Below, piece by piece: positions 1 to 22,377 of a DNA stretch of 25,684 nt (positions are counted from its first letter, which is position 1; every line of letters begins with the position of its first letter). The notes under the pieces are model-generated. The model did no database searches. It was not told the DNA's origin and saw only the letters and a program-made list of their open reading frames with translations. A program made the translations under genes and the position numbers. This stretch comes from a virus. Its lineage: Duplodnaviria; Heunggongvirae; Uroviricota; Caudoviricetes. Location of the stretch: the IMG/VR virus record IMGVR_UViG_3300029467_000153. One strand, written 5' to 3'.

Positions 1-1020
1 ATGAAAAGCATATTAATTGAAAAACCGAATCAACTGGCGATTGTCGAACGTGAAATACCCACCCCGTCAGCGGGTGAAGTACGAGTAAAAGTGAAACTTG
101 CCGGAATTTGTGGTTCAGATAGCCATATTTATCGTGGGCATAATCCTTTTGCGAAATATCCGCGCGTCATTGGTCATGAATTCTTTGGCGTCATTGATGC
201 AGTGGGTGAAGGCGTGGAAAGCGCCAGAGTCGGTGAACGTGTTGCTGTCGATCCGGTGGTCAGCTGTGGGCATTGCTATCCGTGCTCTATAGGTAAACCG
301 AACGTTTGTACGACACTGGCTGTATTAGGTGTGCACGCTGACGGTGGTTTCAGTGAATATGCCGTGGTTCCGGCAAAAAATGCGTGGAAAATTCCTGAAG
401 CAGTGGCCGATCAATATGCGGTAATGATCGAACCTTTTACCATTGCGGCTAACGTAACCGGACATGGTCAACCGACTGAAAATGATACCGTTCTGGTTTA
501 TGGTGCCGGTCCAATCGGCCTGACGATCGTTCAGGTATTAAAAGGCGTCTATAACGTTAAAAATGTGATTGTTGCCGATCGCATTGATGAACGACTGGAA
601 AAAGCGAAAGAGAGCGGGGCTGACTGGGCGATTAATAACAGCCAGACACCGCTTGGCGAGATTTTCACTGAAAAAGGCATCAAGCCGACATTAATTATCG
701 ATGCGGCTTGTCATCCTTCTATCCTGAAAGAGGCCGTAACGCTGGCTTCTCCAGCGGCACGTATTGTATTGATGGGGTTCTCCAGTGAACCGTCTGAAGT
801 GATTCAGCAAGGAATTACCGGAAAAGAACTCTCTATTTTCTCTTCACGCTTAAATGCAAATAAATTCCCGATCGTTATCGACTGGTTAAGTAAAGGGTTA
901 ATTAAACCAGAAAAATTAATTACCCATACGTTTGATTTCCAGCATGTTGCTGATGCCATTAGTTTATTTGAACAGGATCAAAAACATTGCTGCAAAGTCT
1001 TACTCACTTTTTCTGAATAA
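1..1020 (+). CDS. rspB: Zn-dependent alcohol/polyol dehydrogenase (MDR family), starvation-sensing RspB-like
   Basis: 339-aa ORF with GHE motif (GHEFFGVI), structural-zinc Cys cluster (CGHCYPCSIGKPNVC) and GAGPIG Rossmann motif; matches my recollection of E. coli RspB (339 aa). Confidence 0.85.
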   Translation: MKSILIEKPNQLAIVEREIPTPSAGEVRVKVKLAGICGSDSHIYRGHNPFAKYPRVIGHEFFGVIDAVGEGVESARVGERVAVDPVVSCGHCYPCSIGKPNVCTTLAVLGVHADGGFSEYAVVPAKNAWKIPEAVADQYAVMIEPFTIAANVTGHGQPTENDTVLVYGAGPIGLTIVQVLKGVYNVKNVIVADRIDERLEKAKESGADWAINNSQTPLGEIFTEKGIKPTLIIDAACHPSILKEAVTLASPAARIVLMGFSSEPSEVIQQGITGKELSIFSSRLNANKFPIVIDWLSKGLIKPEKLITHTFDFQHVADAISLFEQDQKHCCKVLLTFSE

Positions 1021-1207: not shown

Positions 1208-2503
1208 TTAATTTTTCATTGCTTCGTTATGGGGCATGGTTGGGGCAAACTCGCTTAACTGTGTATTTAACAAAGCTACCTGTGCATTATTGTTTTCAGA
1301 CATCCATTTTCCGTATACCTGAAATACCATTTGCGCATCTGCATGGCCCATCTGGTTTGCTATAAATGCCGGGTTAGCACCAGCTGTCAGCGACCAGCAG
1401 GCATAAGTATGTCTCGACTGATATGATTTTCGATGGCGGAGTCCGGCACGTTTTATCGCTGCGTCCCACATCTGCCTTATTGAGTCAACGGTAAAATGGT
1501 CACCATAATTTTTTACTCTCGCTGACACTTCAGGTTGAAAAACAAAGGTGCATTTTTGTTTTTCTGTTCTGCCATACTCTCTGAGGTGAACATCAATGAT
1601 ATGCTCTTTGCTCAGTCTCGTTAATGTCATCTGACTCCGGAGAGCGTCGATTGCTGGCTTAATAAGATGAATGACCCGATTGGTTCCCGCCTGTGTTTTT
1701 GGTACCGTGAAACGGTCTTTTGCTAAATTTCTCCTGATCATCATTGTTCCATTTTTCAGATCTATGTCCTCCCATCCAAGTGCACACAGCTCACCAGGGC
1801 GAACGCCAGTATAAACAGAAACACACCATAAATTTTTTGCTTGCTGATTTCTGCACGCATCGATAAGACGGATAAATTCTTCCCGCGAAAGAGGATCCGG
1901 AATGGTTCTTGATTCCTTTAATGGCGAGATCCCCTTAAACGGATTATCTGCCAGGTAACCGTTATCAACACCAAACTGGAACACGGCGTTAAGATTTGTC
2001 ATGTAATTATTTACAGTTACAGCCGATCTCCCTGGTTGTGTAACAATATAGTTACTTTTGGGGATCTGGTATCCAGTCAGTAACTCTTTACGAACCTCCA
2101 GTAATTTTTCTTTATTAATCGATGAGGCAAGATTTTTTTCACCGATTATGCTCAGGATATTTTTGATGACGGCACGGTATGTGTTGAGTGATGTTTTGGC
2201 GACTTCAGTTTCTTTCAGTGCCAGAAATTTTTCAGCCAGTTCTTTTATGGTTAAATCTTGTCGGGCCTCACCAAATTTTTCCAGATTGCGTGAGGAGGGA
2301 AACTGTTTTGCATAGTCGAAAACACCAGTTTTTATTGCGTAACAAACAGAGGAGCGTAGTTCACCTGCAACGCGCCTGTTTTTTGCTGTGTCAGGAACCC
2401 CCAGATTTTCCCTGACTCTTACGTCTTTATAAACAAACCAGATACGTAATTTCCCTCCATGGTTTTCCACGCCTGTCGGATATTTCATTTCAACTTCTCT
2501 CAT
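1208..2503 (-). CDS. int: phage tyrosine integrase (full length)
   Basis: 431-aa ORF with tyrosine-recombinase C-terminal motifs (RHTYACW; GHADAQMVFQVYGKW) and an N-terminal arm-binding-type region; sits next to attL and is transcribed toward it. The second ATG at 2488 (MKYPTG) has the better purine-rich upstream context. Confidence 0.9.
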   Translation of the reverse strand: MREVEMKYPTGVENHGGKLRIWFVYKDVRVRENLGVPDTAKNRRVAGELRSSVCYAIKTGVFDYAKQFPSSRNLEKFGEARQDLTIKELAEKFLALKETEVAKTSLNTYRAVIKNILSIIGEKNLASSINKEKLLEVRKELLTGYQIPKSNYIVTQPGRSAVTVNNYMTNLNAVFQFGVDNGYLADNPFKGISPLKESRTIPDPLSREEFIRLIDACRNQQAKNLWCVSVYTGVRPGELCALGWEDIDLKNGTMMIRRNLAKDRFTVPKTQAGTNRVIHLIKPAIDALRSQMTLTRLSKEHIIDVHLREYGRTEKQKCTFVFQPEVSARVKNYGDHFTVDSIRQMWDAAIKRAGLRHRKSYQSRHTYACWSLTAGANPAFIANQMGHADAQMVFQVYGKWMSENNNAQVALLNTQLSEFAPTMPHNEAMKN

Positions 2504-2522
2504 TAGTTAGTGTGGCTTTTAG

Positions 2523-2774
2523 TCAAGTAAGATGACGTCTTGGTCTCGCTGATGCCTGGCGCTCAATCCAGCGATCAATTTCTTCCAGGTTGTAAAAGCA
2601 TGGACTGTTATCCCATGGCATACCGTCATGAGCGACATGCTTATATTCCCTTCCTTCCATAAACGATTTTTCCCGGGCCTTTTTTAACGTACCTTTTTTT
2701 ATTCCTTTCAGCGCAATTAACTGCTCTTCGGATACCCATTTGCCGGGAGAGACAATCATGATTACTTCGCTCAT
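2523..2774 (-). CDS. xis: putative excisionase / small DNA-binding protein
   Basis: 83-aa ORF immediately upstream of int on the same strand, basic C-terminus; call is by position and size only. Confidence 0.45.
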   Translation of the reverse strand: MSEVIMIVSPGKWVSEEQLIALKGIKKGTLKKAREKSFMEGREYKHVAHDGMPWDNSPCFYNLEEIDRWIERQASARPRRHLT

Positions 2775-2846: not shown

Positions 2847-5318
2847 TTAAGAATCAGCCTGACTCGGGATCAGTTTTTGCCAGATAACTGAAACGTATTT
2901 TGCCTGGTAACGGGCGTCATCAAGTGCATTATGGCGCTCACCTTCGAATGGAATAGCCGTTCTGGCATCGAAGTCTATGGCTTTCCCCAGCTCAACGATT
3001 GTGCGTACATCGCGATCGTTGTAGTAACGCCACGGGCAGGGGATCCCCTGCCGTTCGTATGAACGGCGCAAAATCGTGTTGTCGAAGTTGGCTCCATTTC
3101 CCCAAACCTGAACAAAAAATTCACCGGAGTTTTCGTCGATAAATTCTCGCAATTGTAACAGTGCATCATCTAACGGGATTTCATCGGTCATAATGGCAGA
3201 TTGCGCTTCGCGTGATTGCTTAAGCCACCATTTAATGGTGTCCCGATCAATGACTCCGCCAGCAGTTTCCAGATCGATAGTCTTACTAAATTCCGGTCCC
3301 ATATCTCCGGTTTGCGGATCGAAAAATATTGCACCTATTGAGATGATCGGGGCATCAGGATTTTTTCCCATGGTTTCAAGGTCGATCATTAGATGGTCAC
3401 ACGTCCTGCTGGTGGATGTGATTTCGTGATGACTGTTCACCTTAATTGGGTGATCTGCCGTCTCGCCAGTTTCATTATCGCTATTGTGATGCTGATTGCC
3501 GCCAGTGTTCTCCTTGTGTGGATGTTCAGCGCCTTCCATTTCCTCCGGATCATCTTCCTGAACTTCAACCTGATACTCTTCATCGAATGTTTCTTGGTAT
3601 GTTGCGTCGCCCATCACCGCGCCACAATCAGGGCAGTTGCCGCCGCCGGTCTGACCGCAGGCGGTGCAGACTTTTTCCACTTCCTGTTGCGCTACTGGTT
3701 CAGGCTGTTTCGTTTCTGGCTCGTTTTGTAACGCATTTGGACTGTTTTGTTCCGCTTTTTGGTAGTTCCGTTCCGATTCATGCTGGTTCTGGTTCACAGA
3801 ATCGCGGGTCTGGAGCCCCTTAACCCATTTCGGATCATTCGGGTCACTAATCCCTTCAACAAATTCACCACGTGATGCAGCAAGCAACTTATCGGCGTCA
3901 GGCTGGCTGATATTGGCTGCCTGCATAATTTTGTTTACTTCGTCAGCGGTAACTTTTATCGGCTCTGGTTGTTCTGAATCTTCAGCGGTATCTACATTTT
4001 GCGGTAAGCCCGTGTATGTGCCATTTTTTCGGGCAAAATATTCTTCTTTTGTGATTTCAGTGGCGCCAGCAGCCAGTGCCTTATCCAGACCAGAGAGTTT
4101 GTTTGCGCGACCGTATTTTTCTCCGTCCTTATCTGCGAAGAGGAAATAGAACGGCCCCTCACGCTCTACAGATGGTTCAGCTTCCGGCGCGGTTTCATTT
4201 TTTGGGATATCAGATACCTCAGTTTCCACTGCATCAGTTTGTGTGTCTGATGACTGGAGAACATCAACAGTGCCCAGGTCTGTTTCTTCATTCTCAAACA
4301 CGCCCTTTGTCGTCAGGTATTCGCAGATATATTTGTTCAGTGCTACGGGATCTTTGTGAATGTCGATCGGACGCTCACGGACAAGGCCAAAAATAGTTTG
4401 GCGGTCGTAGCGAAGGGCATCAGGCTGTTTGCGCATTGATGCCGAGATACGCTTCCAGTCTTCGCGGTCGTTGTCGATAACTTCTTTTTTTGCCCAGCGA
4501 TGGATGCTGCCGTCAATGTTTCCGGCATCCACATCACTAGGCCAGAGAGCGTAGGCCAGTTCGTCATCCAGTGTTTTCCATGTCTGCTTGTATTCGCGAT
4601 GAATGGCAGCAATGACCGGGCTGATTTTTCCTGTTGAATTTTCAGTGTACTGTTGATTGGCTCTGGCGCGGGCGAGATCAACAACAGACGTGTATTTTCC
4701 GGTTTCCTTGCGTTCACCTTCGCGACGTTTTTTCCAGATGCGCATCTCTGCCTGAATTTCGGGCCATTTAGCACCAGGAATACATTTATGCTTAACCCAC
4801 CCAATGGCGTGCAACTTAAGCTCCGGATACATGGCGTTAACTTCTGGCATTTTCATCAACGCTTCAACGATATGTCCGTCGAATGTTGCCATGTCTTCCT
4901 GCAACAATTCCTGTGCGCTAATAACCATATCAACGGTGATGTTTTCACATGTGTCGAACTTAACCATGACAGCGTTCTGTACTTCAGGGGCCAGCTTGTC
5001 AAAAGTGACGTTCATCGGATCGGATTCAGTCTCAACCGGGACAAAAGAAGCAGACTCCTCATCCCAGCGGTTTTCCTGCATATATTCAGCATCCCATGAA
5101 TCGAGGGCAGGGCGGGGTATGCCAGGTTTATCCTCGCAGACAATAAATTTATAAGCGCAGTCCTGAGCAGCCGGATAATGTTCTAGGAATTGCCAGTGAA
5201 ATTTTGCTCGAGCACGGCGTTCGTCGCCAGCTTCAATGGCTGTGGCTACAGCCACAGCGCCTTCTTCCCTTGTTGCCAGTTCGTCAGGAATAGCGGCGCA
5301 AATAAAGACTTTACTCAT
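2847..5318 (-). CDS. large prophage protein with C-terminal DEDDh (DnaQ-like) 3'-5' exonuclease domain; family often annotated exodeoxyribonuclease VIII-like
   Basis: 823-aa ORF; C-terminal about 180 aa carry Exo I (MIDLETMG), Exo II (GNGANFDNTIL) and Exo III (HNALDDARYQ) motifs; central acidic low-complexity linker and a Cys4 motif (CTACGQTGGGNCPDCG); occupies the exo/bet position of the leftward operon. Confidence 0.7.
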   Translation of the reverse strand: MSKVFICAAIPDELATREEGAVAVATAIEAGDERRARAKFHWQFLEHYPAAQDCAYKFIVCEDKPGIPRPALDSWDAEYMQENRWDEESASFVPVETESDPMNVTFDKLAPEVQNAVMVKFDTCENITVDMVISAQELLQEDMATFDGHIVEALMKMPEVNAMYPELKLHAIGWVKHKCIPGAKWPEIQAEMRIWKKRREGERKETGKYTSVVDLARARANQQYTENSTGKISPVIAAIHREYKQTWKTLDDELAYALWPSDVDAGNIDGSIHRWAKKEVIDNDREDWKRISASMRKQPDALRYDRQTIFGLVRERPIDIHKDPVALNKYICEYLTTKGVFENEETDLGTVDVLQSSDTQTDAVETEVSDIPKNETAPEAEPSVEREGPFYFLFADKDGEKYGRANKLSGLDKALAAGATEITKEEYFARKNGTYTGLPQNVDTAEDSEQPEPIKVTADEVNKIMQAANISQPDADKLLAASRGEFVEGISDPNDPKWVKGLQTRDSVNQNQHESERNYQKAEQNSPNALQNEPETKQPEPVAQQEVEKVCTACGQTGGGNCPDCGAVMGDATYQETFDEEYQVEVQEDDPEEMEGAEHPHKENTGGNQHHNSDNETGETADHPIKVNSHHEITSTSRTCDHLMIDLETMGKNPDAPIISIGAIFFDPQTGDMGPEFSKTIDLETAGGVIDRDTIKWWLKQSREAQSAIMTDEIPLDDALLQLREFIDENSGEFFVQVWGNGANFDNTILRRSYERQGIPCPWRYYNDRDVRTIVELGKAIDFDARTAIPFEGERHNALDDARYQAKYVSVIWQKLIPSQADS

Positions 5319-5411
5319 TTTGTTTTAACCTCATGACAGATTTAAGGATGAACAAATCCCTGCCATTGCTGGCATATAAGAATGAAACCGGATATTTATT
5401 ACGGAACTGTT

Positions 5412-5612
5412 TTAAAGACCTGCCGGGATTTCGATATTATCCTGGTGAATAACTTTATCGACCGGGTAACAGTTACCGGGAATTTTCTGTTCGGTTGCTG
5501 CAGTCATACACTCCTGCATTGTCCTGTGAACACTGACTGCAATATCAACTGGCACTCCGGAAACAAGAAAAACTGTCAGAACAAGCGCAAATGCTGAATT
5601 TATTGTGCACAT
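5412..5612 (-). CDS. ydfD: small prophage protein, YdfD-like (lysis-associated in K-12 Qin)
   Basis: 66 aa from the internal Met (MCTINSAFALVLTVFLVSG...), hydrophobic N-terminus; lies directly downstream of dicB as in K-12. Identity is from memory and the start is uncertain (ORF extends to 5657). Confidence 0.5.
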   Translation of the reverse strand: MCTINSAFALVLTVFLVSGVPVDIAVSVHRTMQECMTAATEQKIPGNCYPVDKVIHQDNIEIPAGL

Positions 5613-5788
5613 CCTTTTGGCATCAGACGTAAACGAGCCAGCATTGAAACAATGCATATTTTATTTAATAGCTCCCGTTCTTGTTTTCTCTTGTTAATGG
5701 CATCTTCAGTAAATACAGGGTTACTGATAGTGACACCAATTTCAAAACAACCTTCAGACGTATTAACGTTTGGTAATAACGTTTTCAT
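5600..5788 (-). CDS. dicB: cell-division inhibitor DicB
   Basis: 62-aa ORF MKTLLPNVNTSEGCFEIGVTISNPVF... matching my recollection of DicB; GAGGA Shine-Dalgarno 9-13 nt upstream of the ATG. Confidence 0.7.
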   Translation of the reverse strand: MKTLLPNVNTSEGCFEIGVTISNPVFTEDAINKRKQERELLNKICIVSMLARLRLMPKGCAQ

Positions 5789-5929
5789 TATCGCGTCCTC
5801 AACAATGAATTTTGTGATGCAGTGCCTGGTGCCTCCAGGTGACGTTAACCAGTTAACAATTAACGTCGGATATTCGAACGCTGGAAGGCTATCGACACCA
5901 GGGATAAGCGTGAAAAGTTCACGGCGCTA

Positions 5930-6193
5930 GTGCCTGCAATTATGGAGGCTATTCGGATTAATGATTTCAGGTTGTATCGTGAAATTAGTGACGGAAAAAG
6001 CATCACGTACATGATCGCCGGGTTAAACAAAGAATATGGCGATGTGGTGGAGTCCGGACTGCTTTTTGCTGATCCTGCCGTAGTGGATCGTGAAACTGAC
6101 GAACTTATAGAAAAAGCAATTGCTTTCAAACTTGCGTATCGACAGCAATACCAACAAAAAGCTGGATGGAATTATGAGCCTTCTTTTTGCTGA
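5930..6193 (+). CDS. hypothetical protein, first gene of the rightward early region
   Basis: 87-aa ORF (GTG at 5930 or ATG at 5942) with balanced composition, unlike the Ser/Thr-rich antisense ORF 5860-6129; its stop overlaps the start of the next gene (coupling). Weak RBS. Confidence 0.3.
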   Translation: MPAIMEAIRINDFRLYREISDGKSITYMIAGLNKEYGDVVESGLLFADPAVVDRETDELIEKAIAFKLAYRQQYQQKAGWNYEPSFC

Positions 6194-7046
6194 ACGCCCA
6201 CTGGTTATAAACACACAGCTTGCGATGAAGATTGGCTTAAATGAAGCCATTGTGTTGCAGCAGTTGCATTACTGGTTGAGAGATACCAATTCCGGCATGG
6301 AATGTGATGGTGTTCGCTGGATTTACAACACAACGGAACAATGGCTGGAACAGTTCCCATTCTGGTCAGAGTCAACGTTAAAGCGCGCGTTTGCAAGTCT
6401 GAAAACGCTGGGGCTTTTGCGTTGTGAAAAGCTCAATAAATCAAAGCGCGATATGACCAATTTCTACACGATCAACTACGGGAGCGAGCTTTTAGATGGT
6501 GGCAAATTGAGCGAATCCATCGGTTTAAAATGCGCCGCTCCATCAGGTCAAAATGACACGATGGAAGAGGTCAAAATGAAACGCTCCATTGGTTCAAAAC
6601 GACCCAATGTCATCGGGTCAAAATGGCCTGATGATCTTACAGAGAATACAACAGAGATTACTACAGAGAATAAAAACACTTTTCGTCCGGAAGCTTCGCA
6701 ACCGGACCCGCAGACCGCTGAACAGGATTTTTTAACCCGGAACCCCGACGCGGTTGTGTTTAGTGCGAAAAAACGCCAGTGGGGTAGCAGGGAGGATTTG
6801 GCGTGTGCGCAGTGGATTTGGGGGCGGATCGTGAACCTTTACGAACAGGCTGCCAGCGACGATGGAGAGATCATGCGACCAAAAGAGCCTAACTGGACAG
6901 CCTGGGCCAATGACGTGCGCACAATGCGGATGCTGGATGGCAGAAGCCACAGACAAATTTGCGAAATGTTTGGTCGGGTAAGCCAGATTCTGGCACTGAC
7001 AGATAGAAAGCCTGTTATCTGTCAACGAACAGGGAAAAAACGATAA
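6174..7046 (+). CDS. phage replisome-organiser / replication-initiator-like protein (winged-helix N-terminal domain)
   Basis: Start chosen at the internal ATG 6174 (MSLLFAERPLVINTQLAMKIGLNEAIVLQQLHYWL...); the N-terminal pattern ...EQWLEQFPFWSESTLKRAFASLKTLGLLRCEK resembles DnaD / phage replisome-organiser N-domains. Recognised by pattern only. Confidence 0.45.
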   Translation: MSLLFAERPLVINTQLAMKIGLNEAIVLQQLHYWLRDTNSGMECDGVRWIYNTTEQWLEQFPFWSESTLKRAFASLKTLGLLRCEKLNKSKRDMTNFYTINYGSELLDGGKLSESIGLKCAAPSGQNDTMEEVKMKRSIGSKRPNVIGSKWPDDLTENTTEITTENKNTFRPEASQPDPQTAEQDFLTRNPDAVVFSAKKRQWGSREDLACAQWIWGRIVNLYEQAASDDGEIMRPKEPNWTAWANDVRTMRMLDGRSHRQICEMFGRVSQILALTDRKPVICQRTGKKR

Positions 7047-7566
7047 AACCCACTGGATTATTTTTATGAAAGAGGCATCCAGTGAGTAGATTCGTAAGGT
7101 TACAGATACGTATATCTGAATAATTAAATTCAGTTCTGTAAATAAAACTTAATCCTTAACCGGATGGATTTCTGCACCCTCAGAACATCAGGAGGCCGCC
7201 CGAAAGGGCGGTAGTGAAATGCGAAAGTTCAAAATTATTATTGAAACGGGAATAGCTGGTGGAGATTTTGAGGATGTATTCGAAGTGGACGATGACGCAA
7301 CACCTGATGAAATTCATGACGGAGCATAAGAAATTTTCTTTAACTACTGCAATTACTCATACCACGAAATAAAAGACGATGAGGAAGAACAAAGTGGCTG
7401 ATTTTTGTTCAGCTAAATATAACATCAGTTTTGAAGAGCGGGATGAACTATTAATGGACTATGGTGAGTTACGCGGTGGAAGTGCTGCTGATGTCGAATC
7501 CTAGCGTGATGACTATGAAGCGGGAAAAACTCCGGTCGAAGCATATTGTGATGAGTGGGGCGATGA

Positions 7567-8246: not shown

Positions 8247-8621
8247 GGGTGTTCATGGCGGTCATGTGCATTGAATACTGGCGGTAAATACAGCGAACTC
8301 CATTGGTTTAGTTGGATATTTACTGTGCTGGACAAAAACGGTTTGCGGGGAAATCTTAGTTAAGTAGAATGACTGCGGGTGCTTGAGGCTATCTGCCTCG
8401 GGCACGAACACCAACGGCAGGTAGAGAAAAGCCCCAGTTAACATTACGCGTCCTGCAAGACGCTTAACATTAATCTGAGGCCAATTTCATGCCAGACACA
8501 TGTAGGTTAGCCTCTTACGTGCCGAAAGGCAAGGAGAAGCAGGCTATTGTTAACACCAAGCTGTAATGTCCCCTTTGAACCATTCTAAAATGTCCCCAGA
8601 CAATTCTCTGGGGGATTTTTC

Positions 8622-9963
8622 ATGACCAAAGAAACTGTTACGATGAGTCATAAGGAACTCCACCGACTTCAGATTATTCAGGAGTCAATTAATCGACATA
8701 TTACTCAGGAACAAGCTGCGGCACGCATTGGCATTTCTATTCGGCAGGTTAAACGTCTGGTGCAACGGTATAGAAATGAAGGGCCTTCTGGTCTGGTTTC
8801 CCACCGACGTGGAAAGCGTCCTAATAATTCCTTTTCTACTGAATTCAGAGCAACAGTAATTTCACTCCTCAAAGGCCGTTACGCTGATTTTGGACCTACG
8901 TTTGCGTGCGAAAAATTGCGCGAGATACACGGTTTATCTTTATCCGTTGAAACTCTCAGAAAGTGGATGATAGAAGAGGGGGGTATGGCGTGAACGCCGT
9001 CGTAAAATTGCCCGTATATATCAACGCCGCATGCGACGACCATCTTACGGTGAACTGATCCAGATTGATGGCTCACCTCATGACTGGTTTGAAAATCGAG
9101 GCCCCAGATGTACACTGATCGTTTTCATTGATGATGCCACCAGTGCGTTGATGGCGTTGCGTTTTGTGCCTGCTGAAACAACCCGGGCTTACATGGAAAC
9201 CCTCCGGGGTTACCTTAATGATCATGGCGTACCGCTCGCTCTCTACTCTGATAGACACAGTATATTCAGGGTAAATAACCCAGAGCGGGAAGGTGAGCTG
9301 ACCCAGTTCACTCGTGCGATAAAGACACTGGGCATCGAGCCAATCCATGCCAACAGCCCGCAGGCAAAAGGGCGGGTAGAGCGCGCCAATCAGACACTAC
9401 AGGACAGGCTGGTCAAAGAAATGCGGCTTCAGAATATCAGTGATATTGAAACAGCAAATGCATGGTTGCCGACCTTTATTGAAGCCTATAACAACCGGTT
9501 CGCTACGTCGCCTCGTACTACTGATAATGCTCATCTTGATGTGCACCATTCTGAAGAGGAACTGGGTTATATCTTCAGCCTACAGGCGAAGCGCGTTCTG
9601 TCTAAAAATCTCACTTTCCAGTACAAAAGCAGTGCGTTTCAGGTACGCAGTGAGGGCCGGGGATATCGACTTAGGCATTCGGTTGTTACTGTATGCGAGA
9701 ACTTTGACGGTGAAATTAACGTTCTGTATGACGGGAAAGCGCTGGGCTGGGAAAAGTATGTTGATGGCCCGGAGCCTATACCACTGGATGATGAAAAGAG
9801 TGTCCATGAACGAGTGGATAATGCCCGTATTGATTTACGCTCAAAATACTATGTTAAACCTAAAGCTGACCATCCCTGGCTTACGCGCCGAACGCAAAGT
9901 CATCAGCAAGTTAAGCCCCCGAAGTTACCTAAAAAGAAGCCTGATCCCGATAAAAAAGATTGA
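8622..9963 (+). mobile_element. IS-element DDE transposase (N-terminal HTH plus integrase-core/rve-like domain), split by a frameshift
   Basis: ORF 8622-8993 (HTH-like N-terminus) and ORF 9031-9963 (DDE-like motifs IQIDGSPHDW, YSDRHSIF, SPQAKGRVERANQTL) are in different frames and overlap around a G6 run at 8978-8983; removing one G fuses them (...MIEEGVWRERRRKIARIYQRRMRRPSYGELIQIDG...). IS family and terminal inverted repeats were not determined. Confidence 0.65.
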
Positions 9964-15414: not shown

Positions 15415-15582
15415 TGATTGCGTCGGTTTGAAGAACAGACGATATACGAAGTAGTTTACTAAAGCAGTTCTCATTTCAGGTGTTATTCACTTATTCCTTC
15501 TTTGAGTCTCTCCAATTAAGTACGAAGTCGTTTCTGTTATGCAAACCATTTATGCCGAAAGGCTCAAGTTAAGGAATGTAGA

Positions 15583-15798
15583 ATGTCAAATAAAATGACT
15601 GGTTTAGTAAAATGGTTTAACGCTGATAAAGGTTTCGGCTTTATTTCTCCTGTTGATGGTAGTAAAGATGTGTTTGTGCATTTTTCTGCGATTCAGAATG
15701 ATAATTATCGAACCTTATTTGAAGGTCAAAAGGTTACCTTCTCTATAGAGAGTGGTGCTAAAGGTCCTGCAGCAGCAAATGTCATCATTACTGATTAA
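15583..15798 (+). CDS. cspB: cold-shock protein CspB
   Basis: 71-aa [41 protein letters not shown]... with RNP1 (KGFGFI) and RNP2 (VFVHF) motifs. Confidence 0.9.
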
Positions 15799-16079
15799 AA
15801 TTCATCGCTCGTCTGTATACGATAACGAAGAAGGCTGATGCCTGAGTAGAGATACGGACAGAGTAGTGAATATTGGATCTCTTTAATAAAAAGTAAGGAG
15901 GTCCAATACATGAAACAATGGCTAGCATATTTGGCAAAATCTTAATCAGGAAAAGTATGCTAACCATTGTGGTGAAGTGCAGGTTTGCTGCATGAATAGT
16001 TTTACAGCAGAAGCTAACTGCTGGCATGGCAAAACAAAGTGCGTAAGTGGATGACTCCCACAAAAAGCACCACAATCTC

Positions 16080-18319: not shown

Positions 18320-18470
18320 GGTGTTCTGGTTTGTTACAAATTTATCTGAAGCAGTCATTGTTATAATTTTATTATTTGTACCTCTTGAGATTTCCTTGTT
18401 GGTTTTTCTCTCTGATATTTTTTTTCGGACCATTCTGCCCAAGGGCTAATTTCTTCAAAAGGTAATAATT

Positions 18471-18683
18471 ATGTCTAACAAAATGACTGGTTTAGTGAAA
18501 TGGTTTAACCCTGAAAAAGGTTTTGGTTTCATCACGCCGAAAGATGGCAGCAAAGATGTGTTTGTCCATTTCTCAGCAATTCAGAGCAACGATTTCAAAA
18601 CATTAACTGAGAATCAGGAAGTTGAATTTGGTATTGAGAACGGACCTAAAGGTCCTGCCGCTGTTCATGTAGTGGCGCTTTGA
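18471..18683 (+). CDS. cspI: cold-shock protein CspI
   Basis: 70-aa [48 protein letters not shown]... with RNP1/RNP2 motifs. Confidence 0.9.
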
Positions 18684-18887
18684 GGTAGACAATATTACAA
18701 ACCATATTCACTTTAGATGCCCGTGTTGTCATGGTTCCCAGTATAGAACATCATCTTTTGATGTTTCTGACATGAATCCTTTCGGGGCAAAATGTATCTT
18801 TTGTAAATCAATGATGATTACATTTGATAATATTTCACAATACTTAAATGCCAGCCGTCTGTCGTTGGATTTAAAAAAGTGAAAATG

Positions 18888-21076: not shown

Positions 21077-21615
21077 GAGGCACCTGTCAGATTGAGCGTG
21101 CAGCCAGTGAATCCCCGCATTTTATGCGTTTTCATGTTGCCTGCCCGCACTGCGGGGAGGAGCAGTACCTTAAATTTGGCGATAAAGAGACGCCGTTTGG
21201 CCTCAAATGGACGCCGGATGATCCCTCCAGCGTGTTTTATCTCTGCGAACATAATGCCTGCGTCATCCGCCAGCAGGAGCTGGACTTCACTGATGCCCGT
21301 TATATCTGCGAAAAGACCGGGATCTGGACCCGTGATGGCATTCTCTGGTTTTCGTCATCCGGTGAAGAGATTGAACCGCCTGACAGCGTGACCTTTCACA
21401 TCTGGACGGCGTACAGCCCGTTCACCACCTGGGTGCAGATTGTCAAAGACTGGATGAAGACGAAAGGGGATACGGGAAAACGTAAAACCTTCGTGAACAC
21501 CACGCTCGGTGAGACGTGGGAAGCGAAAATCGGCGAACGTCCGGATGCTGAAGTGATGGCAGAGCGGAAAGAGCATTATTCAGCGCCCGTTAGCGAATAC
21601 CAGTACAGATGGTAA
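20996..21615 (+). pseudogene. internal fragment of terminase large subunit (gpA-like), no native start
   Basis: Frame encodes ...KSIRGSTPKVRGTCQIERAASESPHFMRFHVACPHCGEEQYLKFGDKETPFGLKWTPDDP...EHYSAPV, which I recognise as an internal part of lambda gpA; the track ORF 21073-21615 begins at a GTG that is a Val codon in gpA. Confidence 0.7.
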
Positions 21616-21801: not shown

Positions 21802-22377
21802 ATGGCATTCAGAATGAGTGAACAACCACGGACCATAAAAATTTATAATCTGCTGGCCGGAACTAATGAATTTATTGGTGAAGGTGACGCATATATTCCG
21901 CCTCATACAGGTCTGCCAGCAAACAGTACCGATATTGCACCACCAGATATTCCTGCTGGCTTTGTGGCTGTTTTCAACAGTGATAAGGCATCGTGGCATC
22001 TCGTTGAAGACCATCGGGGTAAAACGGTTTATGACGTAGCGTCAGGGGACGCGTTATTTATTTCTGAACTCGGTCCGTTACCGGAAAATGTTACCTGGTT
22101 ATCGCCGGAAGGGGAGTTTCAGAAGTGGAACGGCACAGCCTGGGTGAAAGATGCAGAAGCAGAAAAACTGTTCCGGATCCGAGAGGCGGAAGAAACAAAA
22201 AACAGCCTGATGCAGGTAGCCAGTGAGCATATTGCGCCACTTCAGGATGCTGTAGATCTGGAAATCGCAACGGAGGAAGAAACCTCATTGCTGGAAGCCT
22301 GGAAAAAGTATCGGGTGTTGCTGAACCGTGTTGATACGTCAACTGCACAGGATATTGAATGGCCAGCACTGCCGTAG
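21802..22377 (+). CDS. tfaQ: tail fibre assembly protein
   Basis: 191-aa [51 protein letters not shown]... typical of lambdoid/Mu-type Tfa chaperones; directly follows the stf remnant. Confidence 0.8.

Follow-up and report, generated by a model that had tools for sequence, protein, structure and literature searches.

A RecE-like scaffold carrying a DexA-like DEDDh exonuclease domain in Qin-type prophages of Escherichia coli

A stretch of viral DNA of 25,684 nucleotides (nt) (Caudoviricetes; IMG/VR record IMGVR_UViG_3300029467_000153), called here the window, carries on the minus strand (2847..5318) a gene for a protein of 823 amino acids (aa). This protein is a paralogue of RecE in which the 5'-3' nuclease head of the PD-(D/E)XK type has been replaced by a 3'-5' head akin to DexA of phage T4, an architecture that we regard as secure. 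The coding sequence consists of 823 codons and a stop codon, starts with ATG, and is preceded at a distance of about 10 nt by a GAGG motif. What is a pseudogene in K-12, ydfE, is intact here; the gene belongs along its full length to the PHROGs family phrog_2082. The product, called 'exonuclease' or '3'-5' exonuclease' in RefSeq, is highly acidic (isoelectric point, pI, 4.64; net charge -65). As to function, sequence, models and analogy lead us to assign a probability of about 55% to the reading that the protein is an annealase-independent 3'-5' DNA exonuclease built on a RecE-type scaffold, which would serve the early operon as an accessory of end processing or recombination.

Residues 638-823 form the exonuclease head. 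The Pfam profile PF16473 (Rv2179c-like) matches residues 642-813 over positions 2-177 of its 177, at E=2.4e-67 and 226.5 bits (cutoff 27). The original prediction, made from the sequence and its open reading frames (ORFs), had placed DxE, FD and H-x4-D motifs near the C-terminus. They are found there as M-I-D646-L-E648-T, F745-D746 and H796-x4-D801, in agreement with Pfam and with an alignment in which D646, E648, D746, H796 and D801 pair with D7, E9, D119, H186 and D191 of T4 DexA. These catalytic residues are kept in 9 of 10 representatives of the clusters with a DEDDh head. AlphaFold2 models residues 640-823 as an RNase H-like alpha/beta fold, at a predicted local distance difference test (pLDDT) score of 70-87. 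The best sequence match of the 823-aa protein in the PDB is T4 DexA (8kel, E=1.6e-6). When the full model was compared with the PDB by Foldseek, all 30 matches at E<=1e-3 were DEDDh-type 3'-5' exonucleases; DexA (8kel) ranked first, RNase T, oligoribonuclease, ERI3 and Cap18 followed, and Rv2179c fell just past E<=1e-3. ERI1 and RNase AS are further structural neighbours. The choice between a DEDDh and a PD-(D/E)XK fold, proposed earlier as a test, is thus settled for DEDDh by Pfam, the PDB sequence match to 8kel and Foldseek alike. A C-terminus folded as in lambda Exo or RecE was rejected, as the domain has no PF12684 match and no PD-(D/E)XK protein is found among the Foldseek matches. In biochemical terms the domain is very likely a 3'-5' exonuclease, presumably Mg2+-dependent, as judged from sequence and model. 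It opens with M644-I-D-L-E-T, the equivalent of MIDTET at the extreme N-terminus of standalone homologues; hence the fusion appears to have joined a complete standalone exonuclease gene to the scaffold. An internal start at M644, which would free the nuclease, was considered and dismissed, the sole AGGA being located 14 nt upstream, at a poor spacing.

The N-terminal two-thirds, earlier described as unassigned, can be assigned, and are collinear with the N-terminal region of RecE from the Rac prophage. The NCBIfam RecE equivalog NF007259 aligns residues 246-623 to model positions 271-600 of 877, at 282 bits, below its cutoff of 1269. BLASTP aligns residues 262-627 to RecE residues 278-592 (E=3e-62), with roughly 80% identity along residues ~475-625. 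At the DNA level, residues 474-622 correspond to recE codons 454-588, with 77.9% identity over 448 nt (blastn). The first ~200 residues are devoid of BLAST similarity to RecE. HHalign nevertheless aligned the YdfE_N-type N-terminus (residues 17-199) to the RecE-type N-terminus (PF06630) over 181 columns, with a probability of 87.4% and E=3.7e-6. Newer Pfam entries, YdfE_N (PF27430) and YdfE_C (PF27432), are recorded for proteins 96-100% identical over residues 1-345, for example P0002 (P-numbers denote cluster representatives, L-numbers related loci), and the 823-aa protein very likely belongs to both families. The suggestion that this region might prove to be a well-characterised RecE N-domain holds for the homology, not for the characterisation: the function of the RecE N-terminal domain is unknown, and the nuclease domain alone suffices genetically (PMC11611040, a 2023 review), although full-length RecE improves linear-linear recombination (PMC11611040). 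The label 'exodeoxyribonuclease VIII', which the original prediction had wished to see checked, appears to be drawn from the shared N-terminal region, and wrongly implies a nuclease chemistry of the RecE type.

From the N- to the C-terminus, the protein features N1, N2, the helical core, an acidic linker, a mini-domain, two helices, a Cys4 knuckle, an acidic tail and the DEDDh domain. Modelled by AlphaFold2 from an alignment of 42 sequences, residues 1-345 reach a mean pLDDT of 91.8 and resolve into three domains (residues 1-100, 101-222, 245-343). In the full-length model, the mini-domain, a weakly predicted zinc ribbon and the DEDDh domain are the additional ordered parts, and the rest is disordered. 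The segments are the following:

5019..5318, minus strand: N1, aa 1-100, a small domain of alpha/beta type with which the YdfE_N-type module opens (AlphaFold2).
4653..5018, minus strand: N2, aa 101-222, helical domain (AlphaFold2); with N1, remote homologue of the Exonuc_VIII (PF06630) region of RecE.
4290..4586, minus strand: core helical domain (YdfE_C-type), aa 245-343, equivalent to RecE aa 278-345 (BLASTP against Rac RecE; pLDDT >95).
4167..4289, minus strand: acidic disordered linker 1, aa 344-384 (29% D+E; pLDDT <50).
4008..4166, minus strand: mini-domain, aa 385-437, beta-beta-alpha-beta-alpha (pLDDT 81-91).
3453..3899, minus strand: mosaic segment in common with Rac recE, aa 474-622 (blastn, BLASTP; megablast matches to annotated recE).
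3621..3668, minus strand: Cys4 zinc-knuckle-like element CTACGQTGGGNCPDCG, aa 551-566 (C551, C554, C562, C565; pLDDT about 68).
3408..3602, minus strand: acidic disordered tail or linker, aa 573-637 (28% D+E, net charge -16; pLDDT <50).
2850..3407, minus strand: DEDDh 3'-5' exonuclease domain, aa 638-823 (PF16473; DexA/Rv2179c family; Pfam, alignment and fold).

Both the Cys4 knuckle and the acidic tail fall within the mosaic segment, as does the ADKLLAASRGEFVEGISDPNDPKWVKG motif, and the nuclease domain begins a short way past the end of this segment. Since the block of 77.9% nucleotide identity ends there, the mosaic junction is located in the linker. The Cys4 element had been noticed in the original prediction; it is found at residues 551-566, and is itself RecE sequence, being about 80% identical along with the acidic tail. 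Rac RecE has an equivalent knuckle, CNACGQTGGDNCPDCG, in the BLASTP alignment. The knuckle was found in one of 65 long family representatives, and is thus lineage-specific; the idea of a family-wide functional element was discarded, as Cys4 was seen only in this cluster and in Rac RecE. The acidic low-complexity stretch also noticed earlier corresponds to two segments, those at residues 344-384 and 573-637. The mini-domain falls in a gap of the alignment to Rac RecE, where it is absent, but is conserved among relatives of the YdfE_N type.

Compared with RecE as a whole, the protein is similar in size and charge (RecE: 866 aa, pI 4.7, net charge -64), has a collinear homologous N-terminal region, and, like RecE, is encoded in a lambdoid prophage at that end of the early-left operon which is closest to the integrase gene. 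It differs from RecE in the catalytic domain, which in RecE is a PF12684-like 5'-3' exonuclease of the PD-(D/E)XK type (residues 615-850), in the mini-domain, and in the absence of recT, which lies next to recE.

Proteins sharing the scaffold make up a modular family. An exhaustive HMMER search with residues 1-345 retrieved 171 clusters (50% identity) among 1.8 billion representatives, and the long representatives were classed by BLAST against domain probes. Two types of N-terminal module, that of this gene and that of RecE, were found, both followed by the common helical core, which occurs in every architecture class. C-terminal heads fall into four classes: DEDDh, RecE-type PD-(D/E)XK, class 3 (P0126), and class 4 (phrog_2489, phrog_7838). 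Each N-terminal type was found with each of the two nuclease types, so that all four pairings occur. A RecT-family gene lies directly downstream in 4 of 4 loci of the PD-(D/E)XK type examined (Rac, L033, L043, L049). In contrast, a RecT homologue was found in none of 85 loci with a DEDDh-type gene, mostly near-identical E. coli prophages that represent roughly five distinct gene types; here xis and int usually follow directly. When viral contigs were scanned with the core alignment, all loci returned were from E. coli prophages and near-identical.

Class 4 spans P0139, P0159, P0131, P0255 and 14 more clusters, and features a C-terminal region of ~270 aa with the motif KKSLTDAxKKALSxLGF. In L039 and L040 the gene is found at 5001-7370, and the next gene encodes a Sipho_Gp157 family protein. 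Six of nine class-4 members weakly match the Pfam family Rad52_Rad22, at best with E=0.0035, below the family threshold; this is the sole family matched by more than two members. On these sequence matches, the class-4 head is probably a single-strand annealing (Rad52-like) domain, and the PHROGs label 'exonuclease' of phrog_2489 and phrog_7838 is probably wrong. Class 3 (P0126; L037 and L038, 5001-7109) has a C-terminal region of ~250 aa for which Pfam, the PDB and PHROG functions gave no match. It resides also in L046 (Erwinia) and L047 (Pantoea). No RecT gene lies downstream of the class-3 genes. Searches of PDB sequences with the class-3 and class-4 C-termini returned nothing significant.

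Some clusters depart from these schemes. P0229 (L034, 5001-7259) combines a RecE-type N-terminus with a DEDDh head, and resides just upstream of the integrase gene; Lys replaces E648 and Ala replaces D746, and to judge from these changes its exonuclease domain is probably catalytically dead. P0124 (901 aa) features a RecE-type N-module followed by the second half of a YdfE-type N-module, and resembles a tandem of both types. P0002 (527 aa), P0008 (532 aa) and P0084 (392 aa) carry in-frame internal deletions, so that the DEDDh domain comes almost immediately after the N-terminal domains. They lack the linkers, the mini-domain and the knuckle, and could be either natural 'mini' variants or assembly artefacts.

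The gene is widespread. Intact copies (at least 80% of the gene) were found in 3537 of 5426 complete E. coli genomes (65%), often several per genome, and nucleotide identity of the gene across thousands of genomes is 88-100%. Far from being rare, it is among the commonest E. coli prophage genes. Escherichia phage PhiR42_1, a deposited complete genome (host ECOR13), encodes a 99.8% identical protein, labelled 'exodeoxyribonuclease VIII', and O157 (enterohaemorrhagic E. coli, EHEC) also carries an allele. In a K-12-like genome just the first 767 nt of the gene remain; an IS2 remnant comes next, then a truncated integrase gene. The sequence family is already catalogued in RefSeq, PHROGs and Pfam. 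No functional characterisation was found published: the searchable literature (ydfE, exoD/DLP12, dicB+ydfD+exonuclease, Rv2179c-like) returned no functional study of the 823-aa protein.

Selection was analysed by segment, as the ratio of non-synonymous to synonymous substitution rates (dN/dS) against diverged alleles (L002, L042 and L044 were compared):

N1 (aa 1-100): 0.05-0.16.
N2 (aa 101-222): 0.12-0.26.
Core (computed over aa 236-343): 0.11-0.18.
Mini-domain (aa 385-437): 0.02-0.07, under stronger constraint than any other segment.
DEDDh domain (aa 638-823): 0.27-0.41.
Acidic linkers (against the O157 allele): about 0.75 (linker 1, about 0.76; aa 573-637, about 0.74).

Folded domains, including those functionally unexplained, are therefore under purifying selection, and the linkers are relaxed. 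With the conservation across genomes, this shows that the features of the protein are no product of chance. Synonymous divergence (dS) between alleles varies several-fold among segments (0.08-0.7); against the O157 allele, N1 and the mini-domain show values of 0.40-0.43, compared with 0.08 for the DEDDh domain. Such variation points to repeated mosaic recombination between alleles inside the gene. This bears on the least likely account of the protein, a relic in decay, left by mosaic recombination of Rac-type with Qin-type prophages and without a function of its own: one stretch of the gene became mosaic with recE recently, dS differs between segments, truncated or internally deleted copies (K-12 ydfE, P0002, P0008, P0084) are common, and the P0229 cluster has lost two catalytic residues, but full-length intact copies reside in 3537 genomes and in the isolated phage PhiR42_1, the catalytic residues are intact here as in 9 of 10 representatives, and purifying selection on each folded domain, relaxed just in the linkers, largely refutes the idea, which may be considered essentially excluded.

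Among the cargo genes of the early-left operon in Qin-type lambdoid prophages (dicB-ydfD-exo-xis-int), that for the 823-aa protein comes last. Landmarks around it are:

5412..5788, minus strand: ydfD (DUF1482, about 5412-5603) and dicB (5600-5788), located upstream within the operon.
1208..2774, minus strand: the genes for excisionase (DUF1233, 2523-2774) and for tyrosine integrase (1208-2503), both located downstream.
1-1020, plus strand: host gene rspB, beyond the integrase gene.
5869..5872, no strand: deletion junction, from blastn of the window against PhiR42_1 (L031).

The xis gene begins 73 nt past the end of the 823-aa gene. No RecT/Bet-like ORF adjoins the latter, which is flanked by dicB and ydfD upstream and by xis and int downstream; the position proposed earlier, that of exo in a leftward operon without an adjacent annealase ORF, holds for the gene neighbours here as for the 85 related loci. 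In K-12 the dicB-ydfD-ydfE operon is repressed by DicA, and the pseudogene ydfE is listed as a member; in intact prophages the DicF small RNA is also made from the dicB operon (bioRxiv 10.1101/2024.09.21.614188, a 2024 preprint). The lambda genes for Exo/Red-alpha and Bet occupy the same neighbourhood, in the early-left operon by xis and int. Lambda Exo differs in being a PD-(D/E)XK toroid, in having a polarity opposite to that predicted from the fold for the 823-aa protein, and in being paired with an annealase.

The window corresponds to a Qin-type lambdoid prophage inserted beside rspB, 99.6-99.9% identical to the matching region of E. coli WG5. Compared with PhiR42_1, about 2.1 kb are gone at 5869-5872 (dicC, dicA, ydfA, ydfB, ydfC and the dicF region), and this copy of the prophage is thus without its immunity region. 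No DicF match was found in the window by Rfam. A further ~20.7 kb of head and tail genes are gone at about 21589-21591. The prophage is defective, yet the dicB-ydfD-exo-xis-int block is intact.

How the protein may work can be outlined from these data. On induction, or derepression from DicA, it would be made from the early-left operon. As a two-metal, Mg2+-dependent 3'-to-5' exonuclease it would act on DNA 3' ends, and the RecE-type scaffold would direct the nuclease head to whatever partner or site serves RecE. DNA ends would be processed without a dedicated annealase, and not by a SynExo recombinase. Membership in the two-component SynExo type (5'-3' exonuclease plus annealase) was rejected, as the predicted polarity is opposite, and no annealase is annotated anywhere in the complete genome of PhiR42_1.

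Analogy favours, to a moderate degree, DNA over RNA as the substrate, because the nearest characterised relatives, T4 DexA and EcD (a standalone DexA homologue of E. coli), are DNA exonucleases, because standalone homologues 55-58% identical to the domain sit in erf-ssb-exo-abc2 recombination modules, and because the scaffold is otherwise fused to DNA recombination enzymes. T4 DexA (PDB 8kel, 8ken) is a PF16473 member, the best PDB match by sequence and fold, and the five DEDDh residues align; it differs in being a standalone protein of 227 aa from a lytic phage, about 26% identical, with extra loops and no RecE-like scaffold. PF16473, to which an EcD-like standalone protein belongs as well, thus includes DNA exonucleases besides Rv2179c. 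Standalone genes of ~180 aa with the DEDDh domain were found in about 730 phage records, and are common in temperate enterobacterial phages. The closest, 55-58% identical, are gene 29 of Salmonella phage g341c and the 'exonuclease' gene of Escherichia phage mEpX2, both encoding unfused proteins of about 180 aa. In these lambdoid or P22-like phages the exonuclease gene lies in the early-left operon between ssb and abc2, by erf; the modules thus include an Erf annealase, a single-strand binding protein (SSB) and the anti-RecBCD protein Abc2, none of which is found in the Qin-type operon. In four other sampled phages, the standalone gene is found among accessory genes near the attachment site. 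A biological role in DNA-end processing is suggested more weakly.

Several points weigh against this reading. Substrate, polarity in vivo and role of the 823-aa protein are all things that we infer. Rv2179c is named a 3'-5' exoribonuclease in Pfam, and RNA is hence a possible substrate. A 3'-5' exonuclease would degrade the 3' tails needed for single-strand annealing. No annealase is annotated anywhere in the Qin-type phages with the gene, which weakens a role in recombination, and the erf-ssb-exo-abc2 arrangement was found in just 2 of 6 sampled phages with standalone homologues. The 85 DEDDh-type loci count for less than their number, given their redundancy. The acidic N-terminal domains match no known fold, which weakens the idea that they target the nuclease.

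The main rival to an accessory exonuclease of the early operon is a prophage anti-phage nuclease of the HREX type, which by superinfection exclusion would degrade the 5-hydroxymethylcytosine (5hmC) DNA of incoming T-even phages but leave that of the host untouched. An advantage for the host would account for the intact copies in many cryptic prophages. EcD, an HREX protein of the same PF16473 family, cleaves 5hmC DNA and not unmodified double-stranded DNA, and protects E. coli from T4 (PMC12153337, 2025). EcD-like standalone proteins are 38% identical to the C-terminal domain, as measured with a 189-aa ORF (L006, 2070-2636) against residues 644-816; this ORF, found via a primer of that paper, has a C-terminus which differs from the expectation of the reverse primer, and serves as a proxy only. 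Of complete E. coli genomes, 65% have an intact copy of the gene, which is under purifying selection and also intact in the window prophage despite the loss of the immunity region and of about 20 kb of late genes. However, W152 and D169 of DexA, to which the paper assigns 5hmC recognition, correspond to Y766 and K779 in the 823-aa protein. The EcD-like ORF retains W152, and has Glu at position 169 and, as in EcD itself, Ala at D90, the tetramer Asp of DexA, which is kept in the 823-aa protein as D718. Membership among 5hmC exonucleases of the HREX/EcD type was rejected on these grounds, and the anti-T4 function of EcD is not simply transferable to the 823-aa protein. EcD measures about 190 aa and has no N-terminal scaffold. 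Under this model the large RecE-like scaffold would be left without a role. An early operon repressed by DicA is not the typical position of a moron expressed in the lysogen. No defence-protein family of PADLOC-DB 2.0 was matched at E<=0.01. The evidence for HREX itself comes from one study with plasmid expression. On balance, we consider a defence function unlikely, though it is the alternative to be taken most seriously. PMC12153337 treats DexA homologues as bacterial genes, and the word 'prophage' is absent from it; the EcD-like ORF analyzed here comes from viral contigs, and the 'bacterial' EcD defence exonuclease may be phage- or prophage-borne.

Quite improbable, and a minor rival, is a 3'-5' exoribonuclease that would act on phage or host RNA (transcripts, small RNAs, tRNAs) during lytic growth. 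PF16473 is described in Pfam as a 3'-5' exoribonuclease domain named after Rv2179c, and some truncated copies of the protein are called '3'-5' exoribonuclease domain-containing protein' in RefSeq. The Mycobacterium tuberculosis protein (PDB 4hvj, 4hec), founding member of the family, shares the DEDDh fold, but is distant (Foldseek E about 6e-3), chromosomal and single-domain. RNase T, oligoribonuclease, ERI1/3 and RNase AS are among the structural neighbours, and in intact prophages the operon also yields the DicF small RNA. The RNase T structures matched by Foldseek are however complexes with DNA, and similarity of fold does not settle the substrate. The best solved match, by sequence and by structure, is the DNA exonuclease DexA; standalone homologues reside in DNA recombination modules, and the scaffold is otherwise fused to DNA nucleases or to a probable annealase.

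A broader interpretation is put forward tentatively, as a possibility that we hold well short of even odds. The RecE/YdfE scaffold would be a general delivery platform of enterobacterial lambdoid prophages with interchangeable heads (PD-(D/E)XK with RecT, DEDDh, a probable Rad52-like annealase, and at least one unexplained domain), and the DEDDh form would represent a separate, annealase-independent pathway of opposite polarity, possibly of benefit to the host. If so, such a benefit, either phage exclusion or DNA-end processing, would explain retention in about 65% of E. coli genomes, and the binding partner of the scaffold would explain the 560-residue N-terminal region of RecE too. RecE/RecT is a workhorse of recombineering, and reuse of the RecE scaffold with a nuclease of opposite polarity and no annealase, or among relatives with a probable annealase or an unexplained head, provides a natural domain-swap series for the study of the scaffold. 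The protein is among the most widespread uncharacterised E. coli prophage proteins, EHEC O157 included, and is often mislabelled 'exodeoxyribonuclease VIII'. A defence or otherwise host-beneficial nuclease would help to explain the persistence of cryptic Qin-type prophages; were the protein an ordinary accessory exonuclease, the practical gain would be a corrected annotation.

Other elements of the window lie away from the exonuclease gene. Positions 5869-6988 match a part of PhiR42_1 with genes annotated as cII and DNA replication protein O. Across the deletion junction from dicB, a 308-aa ORF (6120-7046, plus strand) has no Pfam match in the library used. The antitoxin RNA sok, of the hok/sok locus, is found at 8377-8548. 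In WG5, the region equivalent to the ORFs at 8622-9963 carries the annotation of a partial ISNCY transposase. An IS009 RNA match is found at 22145-22343. Two thermoregulator leaders of the cspA type, which mark prophage paralogues of cold-shock genes, reside at 15422-15814 and 18325-18710.

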